Shown: in pieces, positions 37,232 to 51,555 of the stretch
How positions within the stretch are numbered: position 1 is the first letter of the stretch
Layout of the letters: each line of letters opens with the position of its first letter
Assembly: GCA_042408215.1 (NCBI GenBank)
Contig: JAYFMW010000029.1
Location: forward strand, 1-64,000
Reading direction: 5' to 3'
Length of the DNA stretch: 64,000 bases
DNA from: Microcoleus sp.
GTDB lineage: Bacteria; Cyanobacteriota; Cyanobacteriia; Cyanobacteriales; Microcoleaceae
Program-made: the position numbers and the translations under genes
Notes under the pieces: model-generated
What the model saw: only the letters and a program-made list of their open reading frames with translations
Database searches by the model: none
What the model was told of the DNA's origin: nothing

Positions 37232-38042
37232 AGAAACTCAAGAAACAAGAAACTGGGTTTTTATCCAGATTATCTGCTGTCACGCGTCTTCTCTGAAAAA
37301 ACCCGGTTTCTGGCCACGCATCACAACTCAAGAAACTCAAGAAACCGGGTTTTTTGCAGTTTTTGGGTGGTGGAACGACATTCTCGGAAAAACCCGGTTT
37401 CTGGCCACGCATCACAACTCAAGAAACTCAAGAAACCGGGTTTTTTGCAGTTTTTGGGTGTGTAATTATATTTTCGGAAAAAACCCGGTTTCTGGCCACG
37501 CATCACAACTCAAGAAACTCAAGAAACCGGGTTTTTTGCTGTTTTTGGGTGGTGGAACGACATTCTCGGAAAAACCCGGTTTCTGGCCACGCATCACAAC
37601 TCAAGAAACTCAAGAAACCGGGTTTTTTGCTGTTTTTGGGTGGTGGAACGACATTCTCGGAAAAACCCGGTTTCTGGCCACGCATCACAACTCAAGAAAC
37701 TCAAGAAACCGGGTTTTTTGCTGTTTTTGGGTGGTGGAACGACATTCTCGGAAAAACCCGGTTTCTGGCCACGCATCACAACTCAAGAAACTCAAGAAAC
37801 CGGGTTTTTTGCTGTTTTTGGGTGGTGGAACGACATTCTCGGAAAAACCCGGTTTCTGGCCACGCATCACAACCAAGAAACTCAAGAAACCGGGTTTTTT
37901 GCTGTTTTTAGGCGGTGTAATTATATTTTCGGAAAAAACCAGGTTTCTGGCCACGCATACAACCAAAGAAACTAAAGAAACCGGGTTTTTTGCTGTTTTT
38001 GGGCGGTGTAAAGATCTTCTCGGAAAAAACCCGGTTTCTGGG
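37232..38042. repeat. Tandem array of about 9 copies of a ~91-bp REP-like hairpin unit
   Basis: AGAAACCGGGTTTTT...AAAAACCCGGTTTCT inverted repeats with linker GGCCACGCATCACAACTCAAGAAACTCA; solo copy near 54627-54693. Confidence 0.92.
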
Positions 38043-38828
38043 CTACAAATACCGAGTTAATTGTACTCGATACCGTTCTTTTTTGGTAACAGCTACTTCT
38101 CCAATTTCCAATCTTCCCTTACCGCTAACAGCGATTAAATCTCCCGACTTGACATTATAACTAGCTTGAGTGATGTCTTTCCAGTTAACTCGCACATCGC
38201 CACTATCAATTAAATCTACCATTTTGCTGCGAGACATGGCGAATCCAGCAGATGCGACAGCATCCAATCTCATCGAGGCTTCAACTGTTGTCAATTCTTT
38301 CTTTTTCGGTTCTCTAATTTTGAGCTCAGTCAACTCAATGCGCCGAGTTTTCACGGGAACCGATCGCACCTGCTGTAAACTCATCTCCAAATACTCTACC
38401 ATCTCAGGCATGACAATGGCTTGGGCCCCGCGTTCGCCCAAAACAATCACATCGCCGGTTTTTTCCCGGACAATTCCCGTACCCAACATCGCCCCCAAAA
38501 AATCGCGGTGACTGGCTGTATCAAACAGGAAATTGCCAGCGATTTCTATCGCAGCAATATTAACACTAGCAGAGTCGATCGCAATTTCCGAGCGGGCGAT
38601 CGCAATTCTTTGTCTTTCAGCTTGCGGATAGCCGCCCCAAGCCACCAACTCCACATCACTCAAACGATTAAATACAACCTTAGCTTCCGCTAATTCAGGA
38701 GGCGACATAAAATCAGTCTGAGTAACTTCCCAATTTTTAATTGCTTGTTCAGCGCAATCAATCACTCGCGCCACGCATTCGCGATTTTCGATACCTTTTA
38801 ACAGTTCTTCTCTTTGCAAACTTGCCAT
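38043..38828 (-). CDS. YlmH/Sll1252-family (photosystem II-associated S4 domain) RNA-binding protein
   Basis: GGYPQAERQR, HRDFLGA, S4 motif SMRLDAVASAGF.MSRSK. Confidence 0.92.
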   Translation of the reverse strand: MASLQREELLKGIENRECVARVIDCAEQAIKNWEVTQTDFMSPPELAEAKVVFNRLSDVELVAWGGYPQAERQRIAIARSEIAIDSASVNIAAIEIAGNFLFDTASHRDFLGAMLGTGIVREKTGDVIVLGERGAQAIVMPEMVEYLEMSLQQVRSVPVKTRRIELTELKIREPKKKELTTVEASMRLDAVASAGFAMSRSKMVDLIDSGDVRVNWKDITQASYNVKSGDLIAVSGKGRLEIGEVAVTKKERYRVQLTRYL

Positions 38829-42345: not shown

Positions 42346-43236
42346 ATGGCACATAGCTGGTGGGAAATTCGAGTTCTTTGCGATCCGGCGTTGGAAGATA
42401 TCATCTTCTGGCGTCTGGAAATGTTCGGCTGTCAGGGAAGTGTCAGTCAGATGAAAAGCAATTCTTGTTTGATGTCGGCTTACCTCCCGGAAGAAAAAGC
42501 CCAATTGTTGGATTTGGCCGCCCTGTCGCTGTGGCTGCGCCAAGATGCCCTGTGCGCGGGTTTACCTTTACCAGCTATGCAGTGGGATTTGATTGAGGAA
42601 GAGGATTGGGGCAGCACTTGGAAGCAGCATTGGCAGCCTCAAGAAATTGGCGATCGCTTTTTAGTTTATCCGGCTTGGCTACCAGTACCAAGTAATTCCG
42701 ATCGCCTCATTTTGCGTTTAGATCCCGGTATAGCTTTCGGTACCGGTGCTCACGCTACTACTCAACTTTGTCTGGAGTCGCTGGAAATGCGGATCGGTTT
42801 TGATGACAAAGAGTGTGTAGTTGCCGATATTGGCTGCGGATCGGGTATTTTGTCGATCGGCGCTGTGTTATTGGGCGCCACAAAAGTTTATGCTCTGGAT
42901 ACAGACCCTTTGGCAGTGCGATCGACCATTAGCAACAGACAACTCAACCGCGTTAACCCGCAGCAGTTGGTTACAGAACTCGGCAGTGTCGATCGGCTGA
43001 AAGAAATGGTAGACGAGCCTTTAGACGGTTTCATCTGCAACATTTTAGCAGAAGTAATCATTGATTTAATCCCGCAGTTCACTTCAATTAGCAAACCCAC
43101 GACTTGGGCCGTGCTCAGCGGCATTTTGCTCGAACAAGCCAAGCCAATTGCTGATACTCTCGAACAGCACGGTTGGATTGTGGCTACTCTGTGGAAGCGC
43201 CAAGATTGGTGTTGTTTTAATATTCGGCGAAGTTAA
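42346..43236 (+). CDS. prmA: Ribosomal protein L11 methyltransferase
   Basis: [32 protein letters not shown]. Confidence 0.95.
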
Positions 43237-43574
43237 CAATCCGAGATTTTCGATACATATATTAGTAATAGAGTTCGTCAGTTGCGATGATTTTCGATGC
43301 GTATCGAATCGCCACAAACTGACGCACCTTACAAGTTAGTAGGGTGAGTCAGTTGCGATAATTTTTAATGCGTATCGAATTGCTACAAACTGACGCACCT
43401 TACAAGGAAAAATATAAACAACTAATAATAAAGATGAAAATTATGATTAGCCTAAATCATTGGTGTAATAGTAATGCTTGCTAGATCGGCTTTTGAGATA
43501 TTTTTGCCTTGCACAACTCATTGTAAAAGTGACAGTGCTAATATGAAAGCATAAACAGCTTGCATAAGAAAGCT

Positions 43575-44063
43575 ATGGACGTTGAAGAACTATATAGACG
43601 TTACGCGACGGGAGAGAGAGATTTCCCTGGAGTTGATTTAAGTCATGCTAACTTAAACGTTGCTGACGTAGGTGATATCAGAGACCTTCCACCTGGTCAA
43701 AATGAGTTGAGTGGTATCAATCTCAGCGGTGCGAACTTGACTAGAGCCGAGTTGAGTTTTGTTAATCTCAGCGGTGCTAACTTGAGTAGTGCTAACCTAG
43801 AGTTTGCCATCCTATTGGGTACTATATTGACTGGTGCTAATTTGAGGGATGCTATCCTAGATTATGCCGAACTGGGAGGAAAACTGATTGATGCAGACTT
43901 GAGAGAAGCCAGCCTGTTTTGTACGATATTGAATTGTACTAACCTAACCAGAGCCAACTTGATGGGGGCAACATTTCAAGTCAGTGCAAAGGGTCGTTTG
44001 ATTTTTAGTGATACCATCATGCCAGATGGGACTATTAATAATGAAGATGAAAATTATGAGTAG
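43575..44063 (+). CDS. Pentapeptide-repeat protein (copy 1)
   Basis: EELYRRYA.GERDF N-cap, A(N/D)LXX repeats, TIMPDGTI C-cap. Confidence 0.92.
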   Translation: MDVEELYRRYATGERDFPGVDLSHANLNVADVGDIRDLPPGQNELSGINLSGANLTRAELSFVNLSGANLSSANLEFAILLGTILTGANLRDAILDYAELGGKLIDADLREASLFCTILNCTNLTRANLMGATFQVSAKGRLIFSDTIMPDGTINNEDENYE

Positions 44064-44177
44064 CCTAAATTATTTGTGTAATAACGTGTAATAGTAATGG
44101 TTGCTGAATCAGCTTTTTAGATATTTTTTCATTGCACAACTCATTTAGGTTTACCAGAGTTCAATTTTATTAAAAAT

Positions 44178-44216
44178 TAATAGCGTGGAAAGCTGACTTG
44201 GCTTTCCACGCTATTT
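44178..44216. terminator. Bidirectional intrinsic terminator-like hairpin
   Basis: AATAGCGTGGAAAGC...GCTTTCCACGCTATT; paralogous hairpin at 45029-45066. Confidence 0.7.
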
Positions 44217-44426
44217 TGTTTAAATTCTAGACCATCAACCTTCTGATTCGATTATTTCCTCTATCTCGTCGGGAATATTTGAAAAAAAAGTCAAGCTCAG
44301 TCAATTCCTCAACTTGGTTAACAGTCAGCTTCCATGTTTGCCAATTTCTCCAAGCAGCTTTGTATTGATAAAAAGTAAAAGTGACAGTGCTATTATGAAA
44401 TTATAAACAGCTTGAACAAGAAAGCT

Positions 44427-44915
44427 ATGGACGTTGAAGAACTATATAGACGTTACGCGGCGGGAGAGAGGGATTTCTCTGGAGTTGATTTAAGAGGAGC
44501 TGACTTAAACGTTGCTAACGTGACATACATCGAAGACCTCCAACCAGGTCAGAATGAGTTGAGTGGTATCAATCTCAGCGGTGCTAACTTGACTAGAGCC
44601 GATTTGAGTTATGTTAATCTCAGCGGTGCTAACTTGAGCAGTGCTAACCTAGAGTTTGCTACCCTATCGCTGACTATATTGACTGGTGCCAATTTGAGGG
44701 ATGCTATCCTAGATTACGCTCAACTCTTAGGCGACCTAATTGATGTTGACTTGAGAGAAGCCAGCCTGTTTTGTACGCTATTGAATTGTACCAACCTGAC
44801 CAGAGCCAACTTGATGGGGGCAACATTTCAAGTCAGTCCAAAGGGGCGTTTGATTTTTAGTGATACCATCATGCCAGATGGTACTATTAATAATGAAGAT
44901 GAAGTTTATGAATAG
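44427..44915 (+). CDS. Pentapeptide-repeat protein (copy 2)
   Basis: 22 aa differences from copy 1 over 162 aa. Confidence 0.92.
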   Translation: MDVEELYRRYAAGERDFSGVDLRGADLNVANVTYIEDLQPGQNELSGINLSGANLTRADLSYVNLSGANLSSANLEFATLSLTILTGANLRDAILDYAQLLGDLIDVDLREASLFCTLLNCTNLTRANLMGATFQVSPKGRLIFSDTIMPDGTINNEDEVYE

Positions 44916-45090
44916 CCTAAATTATTTTTATAAGTGTGTAATAGTAATGCTGGCTGGCTCGGCTTTTCAGATATTTTGCTATGACAAAACTCCTTTATGT
45001 TCGCTATAGTTCAATTTCATTAAAAGTCAATAGCCTGGTAAGCCAAGCAAGCTTTCCAGGCTAATTTCTTTGCTGTCTAGACCATGAGCC

Positions 45091-48000
45091 TTATGATTCG
45101 ATTATTTCCTCAATCTCGTCGGGAATATTTGAGAAAAAGTCAAGCTCAGTCAACTCCTCGATTTGGTTAACAGTCAGCTTCCATGTTTGCCAATTTCTCC
45201 AAGCAGCTTTGTTTGGTATTTCTGGAAGATTTAACCCCAACAAAGCATTGAATGGGTGAGGAACTGGTAGCGCAAAATCTCCATTATTACCTACCGATCC
45301 ATTTGGATTAGTTGGTACGTGAGCGGGTTCAACCTCGTTAGGTGTCAAAATGCCGTAAGTTGCAGCGTTAGCAATTGTGACATTAGCAGGATTTAGTCCT
45401 GGCTGCTCTAAGTCCAGCACAACCTTCCAACTCCAACCAGGAATATTGATTCCTTTGTTAGTAAGAATTTGGGGGTTTGTTAATGTGCTAGGCTTCGAGT
45501 TATGACTGAAACGCTGCGGATTAGGATTGGTGCCATAACCCCCAGCAACAACATAAAGCTCTTTTGGGGTCTCAGTAATTGGATCTGTCTCAGTAATCTG
45601 TTTAAGAAAACCGTCGAAACTTGTCCATGCTGGACTATCAGGGATTTCTCCTCGGAAATCATTGTTATTATCAAAATGCTGTGGAACTACATTTGTCAAC
45701 AGAAAAGTAGCTATGTTGTCTTTTTCGCTATTGGTTCGGTGAGACGAAGGTAGCAGATGCCCCTTTGAGTAATCACTGCCACGGTAGTCTTTATCTACGA
45801 TACGACCCCAGCTTTCAGGAATGCTTTTATCTTCAATAAAGTCGATTTTTGAGCGAGGAGTGTTACCCAACCACTTTTGATTCATTTGCCAACTTACCCA
45901 TTTAGGAGTTTTACTGCTGTCATCATAAGCAGTGGCAAACTGTGCTTTCTCTAGCAAATAGTTATTGCTATCTGCAACGTCAAGGTCAGTTGTGTTCCTG
46001 GCATCTGAGGGATTTCCAAACAGTAGATGTTGACTTTTGAAGAATACATTATCTAAGTAAACTGTACCGCCACCAACAACTTCAAACTTGAGAGTTGCTA
46101 CTTTACCGCGCAAATTGTCAGGCACCTCAACTTGGAAAGTCTCAAACCCTTTAATTCCATAATCAATCTTTTGGGTGTCTGCTAAATAAGCACCTGGTGT
46201 ACGATTTGCGCGCGTCAAATTGATGGATGATGAAACGCCTAAAGGACTTCCATCTGCTGCTGACAAAGTGACCAAAACACTTCTGCCTCGTTTCAGTTCT
46301 GCTTCGGGAACATGGAGGTCAAAGCGTAAATTTCCCCACTCAGGCACAACAAAACGGTTGTGGGTAATACTTTTCCCTGATTCTAGCTTCAGAGCATAAT
46401 TTGGTTGAGTTCGATCGACCCCAATCCTATCCAGTTCCGCGCGCCAAGCCGGAGCCTGTGTTGCAGATAGCTGATTCACATCAACGAGATTGCTTGTAGA
46501 CACGCTCGGTGACGTTTCGCCATTATGAAAAGACCAACCAGGAATCGCATTAGAAAAAAGAGTCCGATTACCACCCTGCGGATTAAAAACAGCATCAAAA
46601 TTGCCGTTAAACAGAGTAGGAACCGCAGCATCTCCCCGCATCCTGGCATCATAAGTATTGTCAAAATCAACCGGGATACGCTCTACATTCGTTTGGGGAC
46701 GCAACTCCGAACCGCCACCTAAAACCGAATAAAACCACCCCGTACCAATTCCCTCCCAAGGAGCAGCATCAACACCATGCTCAAAACGCTCTTCCGGCGT
46801 ATACCAAGGTGTAACCCGAGCAGAATTGTTCGCAATATTGCTAAATGAAAAGTCCTTATCGAACAAAGGTTCGCGATACCCATCGCCGCGTCGGCGGAAA
46901 ATAGGATTAGCATCTAAGTTTTCATCGAACGGGAAGTTAGTTGGAAACAAATCTGATGTCCCCCCATACCAGCTCAAAACACGTCCGTGTACAGCTCCCC
47001 TTCCAGCAATACCAACAGTAGGATCGGTTTCTTTTGTAAACCCAGTACGACTGTTGTCATAATCTGGGTTATTTTTATTAGTTCCCAGAAAAACCGACAA
47101 ATCCGGTTCTCCTAACAGCGGAGCATTAGAATCGGGATTTTCTGACCTCCAACCTTCTCGCGGAAATTTAAGTCCGGGGGCTGTTTTCCCATTTTCTGTA
47201 GACGGAAGATTGGGAATATCCCGACCCGCCGGCGAAACCGTACCGCTTAATAAATTCGGTACTGTCTGATAGTAATTATCCGCAAAAGTGACATTTTTCC
47301 AAACCTGAACCTTCGGTTCGCGGAAATCCCCGAAATTATTTGTCACCACATTTAGCCCCGGTTGATCGAAATCGTGGGGGTCTAAAGTTGTCATCTGAAG
47401 GTCGCGAATATCAGAGTTTTCTTTTCCACCAGCTTCAGGAAAATAAGTCCCCAAACGCTGAATAATTTCGCTGTTAACAACTGTTCCCCGACTGAAGCCA
47501 ATAAAATGCAGCGGTGAATTGAAAATTGCTCCTTGTTTTGCCGTGTTATTTTCATCAATGAACAGTTGGTCTAATTGCACGAGAGAAGTAAAAAAAGCAT
47601 CGGCAACTGCTTCGCTAAAACCTGAATCAGGAGCTGATGATTCATTATTGTTAGACCAATCATTTAGCAACACTAACGGTTGATTTTTGTCAAGGTATGG
47701 AGCTATATAACTCTTCAACTTGGTGAGATAGCTAGGGTCGTCTTTTGGACTCAAACCTGCTGGGAAATCTCCGGCAACCACTCCATATTTGTTGACAGGA
47801 ACCCAATAACCAGTAGCGAGGTCGTACCTCATCATCAAACCGTTGTCCTCAGCACCTGCATTGGCAATACTATTGCCCAGTTGGTAAAACTCTGAAGGAA
47901 TCCCAGGGTTATTAAAAAATGGAGGACTAAAGGGAGGTTTGAAGCCATGAGTCAGCACAGTTACGCTGGGGAAGGTATCTCCACCGTTGAGAGCTGGCTG

Positions 48001-50665
48001 TAGTGGCGTCCAGAAATCGCCAAAATCTATATTTCGGCTGCCATTTTTATTCCAAGCTTCAACTGCCCAATTGTACTCCTGACCCGCTGTCAAAGTGAGG
48101 TTTTCAGGCAGCGTGAAACTGGTATTTGTACCCTCGATAAATGTTTTACCGCCATCCAAAGTCCACTTCCCAATGCCGTCATCACCTCTTTGCCAAGTTG
48201 CTGTCAGAATTCGGTTGGGGTTGAAGTCGTTCTCTTGGCTGTGGTAAAAAGATGTATTCCAAGGTTTTGTCAATAAATCCAACTGTTGTGGTTTGCTCAA
48301 TCCTTGATTGAAAAGAAATTCGTTCCCATTCGGGTCTGGTAAATCGACAACTTGATCCCACGGTAGCAGTCCTTCACCTTCATCGAATACGCTGAGGAAC
48401 AGGTTAACTTCTTCTACATTTTTACTAGGCAATTCGTCAAATTCCCATTCAAAAGTAGGAGTCAAGTCTTCTGTATCCTCACCCGGCCCAGTTAAATCCA
48501 ACCAATCCAGCGGTGTCGCCACCAAACCGCGAGAGTTAGTCGCAGCAACGGGAGCTCGCTTGCTACCAGGTGTCACGCCGTAAGTATACTGGTTGTTTGC
48601 ATCAATCAGAATCTGGAAGTCAGCAGCAACACTAACCGCTGGGTTAATATTATCGATGGGTACTGTGGAAAGGTCAGCAACCGTAGCATTTCGTGCTGTA
48701 GTGCTGTCAAACAAAGGCAGCCCGACACCCCGACCTTTAGCATCAATTTGAAATTGACCGGGGTTGGTCACAGTTCTAATGAATTCCTGAGTGTCAAAGA
48801 CATACACTTTGCCATTCGCACCGCTCAAATTCGGATAGGAAGCATAGAGGTACTTGCTATCGCCCGAAAGCACTAAATCAGTAGTCAATCCGTCGGGAAT
48901 TGGTCTAGTTGCTGCTACTAATTGCGGATTCGTCAGCGGGTCTTTGATAATGCCGATATTGCTACCGGCCCGCGGGTCTCCATCCACGCTGGGCAATTCC
49001 TGACCGAAAAATTTCGCGTCCGCATTGCGACCCACAACAAAGGCATAACTAGCATCCGGTAAAACTGTTACCGAAACTCCCTCATTCACATCAAAGTAAT
49101 CAAAAGTTGAACCCAGTCCTAAATTTGCATAACGAGTAGTAGCAGCAAAACTTACCGGATTATTATTGGTAATATCCAGTACCCCAAATCCTTTACTATC
49201 TTTGCCGCTGTTTGTAAACGTCATCTTCAGCGGATCGACCGTAGCAGCTAATCCTTCTACGCCTTCATCGGCTGTTATATTTCCGATTAATTGATTCCAC
49301 TTTTTAGGGTTCTGACTTGGGTCGCGGGGTCGGTCTTTGGGGTCAATATTCACAACGTAAATCTGGCTGTTTATCCCATTGGGCGCGGTAACAAATAGCT
49401 TCTTTCCGTCACTGCTAATTGCCATCTGTCGCAAACCGCTAGGTGCTGCACCAACTGTAATAGTTTGGGTAACTTGGTGATACTTGGACGAGAATGGGTT
49501 GATATCGAGAACGTAGATGGAATTGCCGCCAGTTTTCCCGTCAGCAATGTAAGCGTATTGGTCGCGGGAATCTATTACTATTGAACGTGGCGCTGCACCG
49601 CTAGGTAAGTCGATCGGATTTATGCCAGCTATATCCGGTTTGGTGTCTACTTGCTGGCGGGTGATCGGATCGACCAAAGCCACTCTACCGGAAGCTTCTA
49701 GAGGTACGTACACGCGAGAACCGTCGCTAGTTACAGTCAAATCTCTGGCTCTATCTAGTCGATCGTCCGTACCTACAGTAATGTTACCAATTAGCAAGTC
49801 GCTGCTGCTCGTTGTCGCCACAACAGATTTGGGATTGGAAGCGTTGAGGACAGCGATTCTATCGGCCGTCCACTGCGCTGCAAACACGTTTTCTGTAGTG
49901 TTTTCAACCCGGTAGGAATTGCTGTTTTTGAGAACTTCTTTTGCTGGTTCTGCCGGATTTGAACTGACTTTTTCGTTTTGTTTGCGACCCAGGACAATCC
50001 GGGAATCGCCCAAGGGTATGGTGTCGGGAACTCTGACAGCTACTTCAAATTGATTGTTTGCTAATTTGCGACTGAGGTTAGTTAATATTGTGCCTTCGTA
50101 GGTTTTGCCACCAACATAAAATTTTACCACTAAATCGCTGAATTGGCTACCTTTGGTGTCGCCAAAGTTGTCTGCTAAAACGTTGCTTCCGGTGAGAAAC
50201 AAAACTGGTAGATTATTTTCAAAAGGTTGATTATTTGCGTCTTTTAATTTTATTTCTGCACTTTCAATGATGGGAGTATTTTGGGGATTGGCGGCAGTTG
50301 AAGCGAGTTGAGATGCGCGTCTTTCCGCAAAAATACCCTCTTTACCGAAGTAGTCGATTTGTCTTTCGTTTGCAGGTTCGCCAGTGAGAGAATCGAGTTC
50401 AGGCGATTTTTTTACGGGGGGGGGTAAAACTGAAATCCTTTAAATTCGGGCTAAAATTGATGAATTTGGAGGAGATTGCGGTGTCTTCGGGGTTATTGTT
50501 AAAACTGTCTGGAAGTCCGGGGAGTGCTGGTGCTGGGCTAGGGTTGATAAGGGCTTGAGGATTGAGTGAGTTTGCGGTATTTAGGTCGAATTCTGGTATT
50601 AAGGTCGTTTCGCCAATAGGGAATGGCTCTTGACTGTTGAAGGGCGATTGATTGGAAAATTTCAT
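45091..50665 (-). CDS. Giant multidomain protein (YVTN-like beta-propeller, lipase-like alpha/beta hydrolase, C-terminal DNA/RNA non-specific endonuclease), frameshifted at a G9 tract (50416-50424)
   Basis: Propeller blades (DG+RVYV, DGKKLFV); VLTHGF and HFIGFSRG; LLFGNPS...WVSWQ...SKGHLLPS...TFLLTNVVPQ...IEELTELDFFSN. A G8 tract would fuse 50665-50399 with 50202-45091 (about 1857 aa). Confidence 0.85.
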
Positions 50666-50970: not shown

Positions 50971-51555
50971 TTAAGAACGATAAACTAAAGAACGAACGTA
51001 AAAAGACACAGATCCAATTAAATAAAAACAATTCACCAAAATCAACAATATCTTACCAATAGAAGAGTGAACAAAACCAAAAATGCGGAAAGTTGACAGC
51101 AACACTAACAACATTTCCACCACAGAAACAATTGACCCGTAATGCTTCCTATCCCAATAAGAAATCGGACTGATAAAACGGTAATTGCTGAACGGAAAAA
51201 AGTGCCTGTGAGCATCATCATTATGCACCGGCAAATCTCCTAGAGAGTGCAGAATCATGCTCAAAAACAGAATTTGGATGCTTTCCCAGCCAAAGTAATC
51301 AGCAATTACCCAGCCGATCGCCGCCAGAGGGATAGAATGAAACAGAGCCACAATATTCTGGACAAAAGGCTCATAATATGCTTCTGACCAAATTGTAGCT
51401 TCCGGCAAGCGAGCAATGTATTTCGCCCAAAAGTAAAATAAAAATATTGGAATATCCGGCAAGATTCCGCCGATCGCCATAATTAGATTAGCTTGCGGCA
51501 ATTGCCGTTTGCCGAGAATTGCCAGATTGATAATCGCGTGGCTGGGAGTATTCAT
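50971..51555 (-). CDS. Membrane-bound metal-dependent hydrolase-like protein
   Basis: MNTPSH, GGILPD, FHS, LH..GDLPVHNDDAH.HF motifs. Confidence 0.7.
   Translation of the reverse strand: MNTPSHAIINLAILGKRQLPQANLIMAIGGILPDIPIFLFYFWAKYIARLPEATIWSEAYYEPFVQNIVALFHSIPLAAIGWVIADYFGWESIQILFLSMILHSLGDLPVHNDDAHRHFFPFSNYRFISPISYWDRKHYGSIVSVVEMLLVLLSTFRIFGFVHSSIGKILLILVNCFYLIGSVSFYVRSLVYRS

Follow-up and report, generated by a model that had tools for sequence, protein, structure and literature searches.

In polymorphic toxin systems, as described by Zhang et al. 2012 (PMC3482391), C-terminal toxin domains are recombined behind a conserved N-terminal part, tips also occur as free-standing cassettes, and immunity genes lie next to the toxin gene or form polyimmunity arrays. 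The same features are found in the family that we analyse here, starting from a locus of Microcoleus sp. (43420–50665 of the window, the 64,000-nucleotide stretch 1–64000 of contig C29 of the source genome, G000), in which a big minus-strand gene, made of a conserved chassis and a NucA-like nuclease tip, faces genes for pentapeptide-repeat proteins (PRP). NucA-type and ADP-ribosyltransferase (ART) tips are common to those systems and to the present family. The partners differ, since in that paper the immunity proteins of Tox-NucA are SUKH, Imm36 or Imm-NTF2, and the word pentapeptide is absent from 300,000 characters of its text. Because its method, as presented there, counted same-strand or head-to-head genes, we think that tail-to-tail and nested partners could have been missed. 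Polymorphic toxins also list trafficking domains, whereas none was found in the window protein with Pfam and NCBIfam.

The NucA/NuiA pair of Anabaena PCC 7120 (PDB 2O3B, 1ZM8) shares the nuclease fold and the catalytic His and Asn residues of our tip, and it includes a dedicated cytoplasmic protein inhibitor, a role for which we predict an analogue in the PRP. However, NucA is a stand-alone protein of about 250–300 amino acids, while the present domain is polymorphic and fused to a carrier of 1,400–10,000 amino acids (about 1,500 for the window chassis), and the partner is a PRP instead of NuiA, which was not found in the source genome. Judging from sequence, the present pair is predicted to work like NucA/NuiA, yet it is outside that pair's membership.

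MfpA, Qnr, McbG, AlbG and the cyanobacterial HetL are right-handed β-helix proteins that bind protein targets and protect the cell; the targets are gyrase or HetR, not a toxin nuclease. The PRPs described here resemble MfpA, Qnr and HetL in being right-handed β-helices, but they score far below the cut-offs of these family models. Cyanobacteria hold dozens of pentapeptide-repeat proteins, almost none of which, to our knowledge, has an assigned function; the source genome alone gives over 100 tblastn hits.

The gene next to a nuclease toxin has been annotated as a PRP in two other cases. YjbI-like PRP genes are neighbours of GH-E His-Me nucleases, the PRP not being proposed as immunity in the section concerned (PMC5714182, section 24), and a PRP-annotated gene is the putative immunity protein in the Tse6/Tsi6a pair of Stenotrophomonas (bioRxiv 10.64898/2026.07.13.738213, section 5). 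Unlike here, these nucleases are of other families, in a type VI secretion system, type VII secretion system or Rhs context, and the passages in question contain no type pairing, antisense nesting or cyanobacteria. The effector TseG carries pentapeptide repeats itself (PMC10933656). In the literature covered, which leaves aside the supplements of PMC3482391 and of the preprint and most subscription papers, we found no account of the present family, of the nested gene described below or of PRPs as immunity proteins against Endonuclease_NS; PRP immunity for a nuclease of this type would be a kind of antidote that we did not find described.

Linkage and pairing of nuclease tips with PRPs

The nuclease tip of the window (45091–46035, minus strand, 314 amino acids) matches Endonuclease_NS (PF01223, E 1e-33), and its closest solved structure is Anabaena NucA (E 7e-70). 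Its His93 and Asn124 are intact. Among aligned tips, the catalytic His is present in 52/52 and the Asn, metal-binding as read from the NucA alignment, in 48/52. The His of the DRGH motif is described as the general base of the nuclease in PMC3025545.

A PRP is the first downstream gene of 71 of the 72 NucA-like tips found in 28 genomes, 62 times convergent and nine times co-oriented. Left out of the 72 are three ends that run off the locus and three split or edge-cut rows (two of them restored from overlapping loci), while seven stand-alone NucA-like genes are tallied separately: none of the seven has an adjacent PRP, and two, in genome G065, lie beside NuiA genes. In a second set of 77 named loci, which overlaps the first so that the counts are not additive, a PRP is present at 76 of the 79 nuclease ends with room downstream (17 nested, 52 convergent, seven co-oriented, three without PRP). 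Conserved linkage in other genomes is what an earlier, sequence-only reading of the window, which proposed a toxin/immunity system, had asked to see, and it is what we observe. That reading had also noticed no NuiA-like inhibitor: a search for NuiA (PF07924) finds none in the source genome, where its built-in control was silent, and detects NuiA in three of five other genomes.

The 68 complete pairs bring together 19 nuclease types (defined on the last 170 amino acids, with a 58% identity cut) and 20 PRP types (50% cut), almost one-to-one. A single PRP type accompanies 12 of the 14 non-singleton nuclease types, and the window nuclease type (type 5) occurs with PRP type 16 in 9/9 cases from eight genomes. 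The median identity of PRPs is 74% within types versus 27% between types, the PRP type is shared with that of the nearest nuclease in another genome in 58 of 63 cases, and nuclease and PRP co-vary with a Mantel rho of 0.27.

Most of the extra PRPs of the arrays (35 of 46) belong to a cognate type, and for 23 of these 35 the matching nuclease is unseen among the loci fetched from the same genome; within that scope, these orphans of foreign types are in line with the earlier suggestion that PRPs cover variants from competing strains. Adjacent nuclease stubs are of the PRP-matching type in 12/18 cases. The window cassette lies between prmA (42346–43236) and a gene for 194 amino acids (50971–51555), and the same prmA site was inspected in 40 further genomes, selected for long contigs and for not being known carriers there: 28 sites are empty, four contain PRPs only, one contains a PRP with toxin debris, and seven are uninformative.

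Homologues of the big gene occur in 17 of the 24 genomes sampled in the genus. The source genome has three more loci of the family, on contigs C7, C8 and C5; that on C7 comprises one gene for 3194 amino acids, one for 2291 and cassettes of 521–1181 amino acids, each followed by PRPs. Alleles at the prmA site are 84–97% identical to the window over 1300 residues, and three of five drop to 25–46% identity after residue ~1300 while still being nucleases; by sequence comparison at this site, then, the chassis is conserved and the tips are swapped at one constant point. The same propeller chassis also bears ART-PolyVal, GHL10, peptidoglycan-binding plus CHAP, and unnamed tips, which have partners of their own (OGFr_N, WG repeats, leucine-rich repeats, and tetratricopeptide-repeat or lipoprotein-like arrays, respectively). 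A PRP is the first downstream gene of none of the 16 non-nuclease tips on this chassis.

The family thus presents the genomic characters of polymorphic toxins: a conserved N-terminal part, exchanged tips, a neighbour gene linked to the tip, orphan cassettes and arrays. We consider it probable that the locus is a unit of a polymorphic toxin–immunity system with cognate PRP immunity, and very probable that the facing PRP inhibits the nuclease tip. In the mechanism that we propose, the chassis, with its swappable NucA-type tip, would be exported, and would display or deliver the nuclease in an attack on neighbouring strains, its propeller, immunoglobulin (Ig)-like and carbohydrate-binding-module (CBM)-like parts binding the target surface. 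In the cytoplasm, the PRP would bind the nuclease 1:1 via a variable β-helix face and cover the DNA groove. PRP1, the second complete PRP of the window, and the other orphan PRPs may be an immunity bank against the related tips of competitors, and a C-run near the start of the big gene would switch toxin production on or off, the window allele being off. If this is true, a large PRP subfamily gains a concrete role that is cheap to test on some 20 naturally matched pairs. The data further suggest that strains in Microcoleus mats, those of Microcoleus anatoxicus among them, compete by means of a protein toxin.

Separately, we note that a gene for 200 amino acids recurs within the PRP arrays of the prmA site (L121:5651-6253, L022:13345-13947, L306); it may be an orphan immunity gene.

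Nested antisense PRPs in giant proteins

Outside the genus, the module is found in six genomes of a 401-genome sample of the phylum, where the nuclease is internal to CARDB/Ig/PKD/Calx-beta giants of 5,000–10,000 amino acids. In each of the five modules read (one of them cut by a contig end), the PRP is antisense within the giant's open frame and starts soon behind the nuclease, and the phase is the same in all. A PRP in the same antisense phase is present in 17/17 of the named loci whose frame extends more than 140 codons past the nuclease, while none of 68 free PRPs has an open antisense frame. Nested PRPs contain no stop-making codon where 33 are expected. At the protein level, 15 of 18 proteins with at least 150 residues after a complete nuclease, drawn from 150 cluster representatives, contain an image of the N-terminal end of the PRP in antisense reading, with a score of at least 8/10 where 354 control windows reach 7 at most; P0089 is clearly devoid of it. 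Three giants without nuclease contain no antisense insert.

The hosts of nested modules are Rivularia, Richelia, Tolypothrix, Calothrix, Nostoc, Myxosarcina, Xenococcus, Waterburya, Phormidesmis and Plectonema; four further records carry no cyanobacterial genus name, and one of these is labelled Bacteroidota. Tolypothrix tenuis PCC 7101, Calothrix PCC 7716 and Xenococcus PCC 7305 are strains in culture that have the nested form, so that coding on the two strands is directly testable; this would be a long, recurring and fully overlapping bacterial protein-coding pair. Several giants contain one RHS repeat and DUF6531, and genes for a peptidyl-prolyl isomerase (PPIase), a C39-ABC exporter and HlyD adjoin one giant.

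The Microcoleus form is devoid of the C-terminal part of the giants. Sixty convergent PRPs are distributed 28/18/14 over the three phases of the nuclease frame, a bias that is at most a weak hint of a nested origin. A broader scenario, which we put forward as tentative and somewhat short of an even chance, is that of a conflict system present across cyanobacteria, in which the antidote gene would lie antisense, codon for codon, in the giant gene, so that toxin and antidote would be inseparable; Microcoleus and its relatives would have truncated the protein after the nuclease, and the freed antidote would have given rise to a strain-typing arsenal of about 20 variants, with an antibody-like PRP face and a slippery C-run as a switch.

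Three other observations concern the giants. The nuclease and the antisense segment repeatedly have a short xLL/MA[DS] motif between them (L215, L212, L210, L211, and nested loci among L249–L299), and a HExxH metallopeptidase-like domain follows; either could be a processing site. One giant open reading frame (ORF) (L210 and L211, G182:C83) contains two nuclease domains, and a separate antisense PRP is nested with each of them.

The C-run and competing explanations

The sequence-only reading had described the big gene as a single gene for about 1857 amino acids; instead, an ORF of 88 codons (50399–50665, minus strand), a low-complexity leader without Pfam or NCBIfam match, is +1 out of frame with an open frame of 1768 codons (50397–45091). 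The frameshift is at a C9-GT-A7 tract (50407–50424, minus strand) whose C-run differs in length among relatives. It is not an assembly error, because contigs from three of four runs (X2, X4 and X6, from three studies) cross the tract without gap and with the same C9 allele; the longest listed piece of X1 ends at 50366, before the tract, and the best-matching run may be the source sample. Among 25 alleles with a start and the tract (ten further loci without start or downstream match being left out), 14 are +1, nine are in phase (three of them with an earlier stop) and two are -1; pure C-runs of 6, 7, 8 and 9 are found, and C8 is in frame. The variation of the C-run from 6 to 9 across these alleles suggests an on/off switch, and reversible slipped-strand switching fits best. 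We favour slightly the idea that the C-run is such a reversible switch, and that the window allele is off.

A serious contender, to which we would give a little less than an even chance, is that the window copy is not phase-variable, being a recent pseudogene, or using an internal start or programmed +1 slippage. The skew between 14 +1 alleles and only two -1 alleles could fit +1 recoding, four +1 alleles have no C-run of 6 or more, and the C9 allele is constant in three studies with no variant seen, although contigs drop rare variants. On the other side, 11 of the 14 +1 alleles retain at least 1700 open codons, C8 alleles are in frame, and no stimulatory RNA structure is found at the tract (z 0.52). 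The ratio of nonsynonymous (dN) to synonymous (dS) substitutions of the chassis is 0.16–0.26, with no stops, among five frameshifted alleles and one in-frame allele; this rules out an old inactivation shared by these alleles. In long-form genes (about 3000 amino acids), too, the low-complexity N-terminal region is frequently interrupted, the remainder being open (L033:12708-14004, L043:11427-14396).

Several points weigh against the toxin–immunity reading as a whole. Neither the pairing nor the Mantel correlation is independent proof of interaction, since genes that lie side by side are transferred jointly and the genomes, being related, do not count as separate cases: the pairing shows a stable cassette rather than binding. 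Most PRPs are convergent with the nuclease and not co-transcribed with it. As for the arrays, 11 of the 46 extra PRPs match no sampled type, six of the 18 stubs do not match the type of the neighbouring PRP, and of two PRP-only prmA sites that were read, one is intact and the other has split PRPs. In the window nuclease, the motif is SKGH instead of DRGH and an Asp is found where Glu predominates; neither a signal peptide nor a translocation domain nor a processing peptidase was identified. Within the nested giants, the nuclease occupies an internal position ahead of PKD/Calx-beta domains, which gives these proteins the look of surface adhesin-enzymes and not of C-terminal toxins, and the orthologue of the C39-ABC exporter in the source genome (54%) is unlinked.

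One alternative is a variant compatible with the toxin–immunity reading: the PRPs would be generic DNA mimics, like MfpA or Qnr, that block any NucA-type nuclease, the types being the drift of linked cassettes. The sequence-only reading had proposed DNA mimicry, and a net negative charge in all 17 PRP types scored fits it, as does a fold family that includes gyrase-protecting PRPs; most nuclease domains, however, are also acidic overall. A generic mimic would need no ~20 types, and arrays mix several of them. Moreover, in 12 PRPs of the window type dN is 0.32 on one face of the β-helix, mostly made of uncharged residues, and 0.06–0.09 on the other three (faces being assigned from the repeat register and not from a model), with dS of 0.41–0.61; on the variable face dN/dS is about 0.7, raised but not above 1, which is a further reservation on the toxin–immunity reading. 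The Qnr and MfpA models give 17–24 bits on these PRPs, against cut-offs of 240–500. The variation on a single face favours type-specific recognition, which we hold to be rather likely, over generic mimicry, which we regard as unlikely. The toxin/immunity proposal of the earlier reading thus finds support in the conserved linkage, in the type-specific pairing, in the exchange of tips, and in the arrays with their orphan PRPs and 3' pieces of toxin genes; mimicry is not supported as its main mechanism. The frameshift, the non-nuclease tips and the nested antisense form had escaped that reading.

Self-protection alone, as for NucA/NuiA, is the main rival, and in our opinion an unlikely one: a surface or secreted enzyme would digest extracellular DNA in the mat, as a nutrient source or to remodel the biofilm, and the PRP would guard the cytoplasm of the producer, with no attack. 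It draws on NucA being the closest structure of the tip, on NuiA not being found in the source genome, on the resemblance of the giants to adhesins, on the lack of any entry domain found, and on the description of NuiA as a constitutive cytosolic guard in PMC13522737. It leaves unexplained the 19 nuclease types, the orphan PRPs of foreign types, the PRPs that survive toxin loss, the promoter-distal tip cassettes on C7, and the ART and cell-wall-hydrolase tips with partners of their own. Self-protection may nevertheless apply to the nested giants, possibly as their original function.

Last, that the PRP is a passenger, either a by-product of the other strand of a repetitive linker or an unrelated co-transferred gene, is very improbable: the antisense translation of the PRP is itself 5-periodic, PRPs abound in the source genome and tight linkage alone yields co-variation, but free PRPs remain under purifying selection after closure of the giant frame, 8 of 14 extracted nested PRPs have a Shine–Dalgarno-like motif, the partner is kept despite flipped orientation (the nine co-oriented cases), and the PRP occurs only with the nuclease, neither with the other tips nor in giants without nuclease.

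Layout of the window locus and other tips

Between prmA and the gene for 194 amino acids, the order is PRP remnant, PRP1, hairpin, nuclease stub, PRP2, hairpin, big gene. The two PRP paralogues, PRP1 (43560–44063, plus strand; Pfam Pentapeptide, E 1e-21) and PRP2 (44412–44915, plus strand; first gene downstream of the nuclease and predicted cognate inhibitor of its tip), have 167 amino acids each, are both of type 16 and are 86% identical (dN 0.08, dS 0.26). The remnant of a third PRP gene consists of 11 3' codons (43418–43450, plus strand; repeat D5, from its translation). The repeat unit is about 850 bp long and includes the nuclease 3' end: a remnant of about 42 codons, which belongs to the type of the window nuclease and is frameshifted at an A8 run, is found at 44235–44364 (minus strand), at the 3' end of PRP1. 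PRP2 and the big gene are tail-to-tail, 176 nt apart. A search of the ESM Atlas with PRP2 returns generic PRP clusters only. Terminator-like hairpins lie between PRP1 and the nuclease remnant (44179–44215, with T tails on both strands) and, as a second copy, between the convergent genes (45019–45063), both from a consensus scan only. The sequence-only reading had likewise seen the two paralogues and a third remnant, a duplicated unit with the last ~40 nuclease codons, and the tail-to-tail arrangement. It had also seen no perfect HIP1 in the region, and we count 0 in 43420–50665 versus 5.0 expected; the source genome is HIP1-rich, 23 of its 1002 equal windows are also HIP1-free, and its three paralogous loci are HIP1-depleted too. 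A promoter scan gives an uninformative 10 sites versus 6.2 +/- 2.3 expected. The named relatives, at 79–92% identity, are Microcoleus and Tychonema.

The chassis (48007–50271, minus strand; model with a pLDDT confidence of 85) comprises an Ig-like domain, a YVTN-type β-propeller and a second β-sandwich, the propeller region matching 1l0q with Foldseek (E 5e-16). It is followed by an alpha/beta-hydrolase domain (46700–47982, minus strand) with a GFSRG motif and a Ser170-Asp207-His338 triad predicted from the structure model, which aligns to 3lp5 (Z 8.9, root-mean-square deviation 4.4, 191 residues) and is partly of low confidence; the nucleophile Ser is replaced by Gly in 12 of 56 homologues. 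A CBM-like β-sandwich (46036–46632, minus strand; model, matches with Z 8–11) comes next, with the tip-swap boundary near 46300. The model of the hydrolase and CBM-like region has a pLDDT of 60, with residues 316–461 below 50, and a Foldseek search with this middle region returns matches for the CBM part only. The propeller, GxSxG-hydrolase and NucA-like parts announced by the earlier reading are confirmed, and its term lipase is not: the fold is that of alpha/beta hydrolases in general, the nucleophile is variable as just stated, and no lipase family matches the window protein in Pfam or NCBIfam.

Regarding the other tips, an OGFr_N gene, a candidate immunity gene, is 3' of ART-PolyVal tips, directly in two of five loci and, in one more, behind an orphan ART cassette; these loci include L043:5229-11458 (on C8), L029 and L122. 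On C5 (L044:1369-17996), downstream of three tandem chassis genes with different tips, there are three paralogues with WG repeats, four that are lipoprotein-like and a gene for 290 amino acids; two of the tips and the 290-amino-acid partner have no family match in Pfam and NCBIfam. The C5 tip beside the lipoprotein-like array is reminiscent of colicin M, a likeness that neither database supports. The C5-type leader ORF (L044:798-1175) contains RRPRKTFILERIITPS, similar to an LEPRxLL-type N-terminal motif, with no match in NCBIfam, and an M50 peptidase gene and a PEP-CTERM gene are upstream in L158. Two 70-nt repeats are found at the edge of the window cassette, right after prmA (43266–43406), and the window contains a longer repeat array at 37354–38060.

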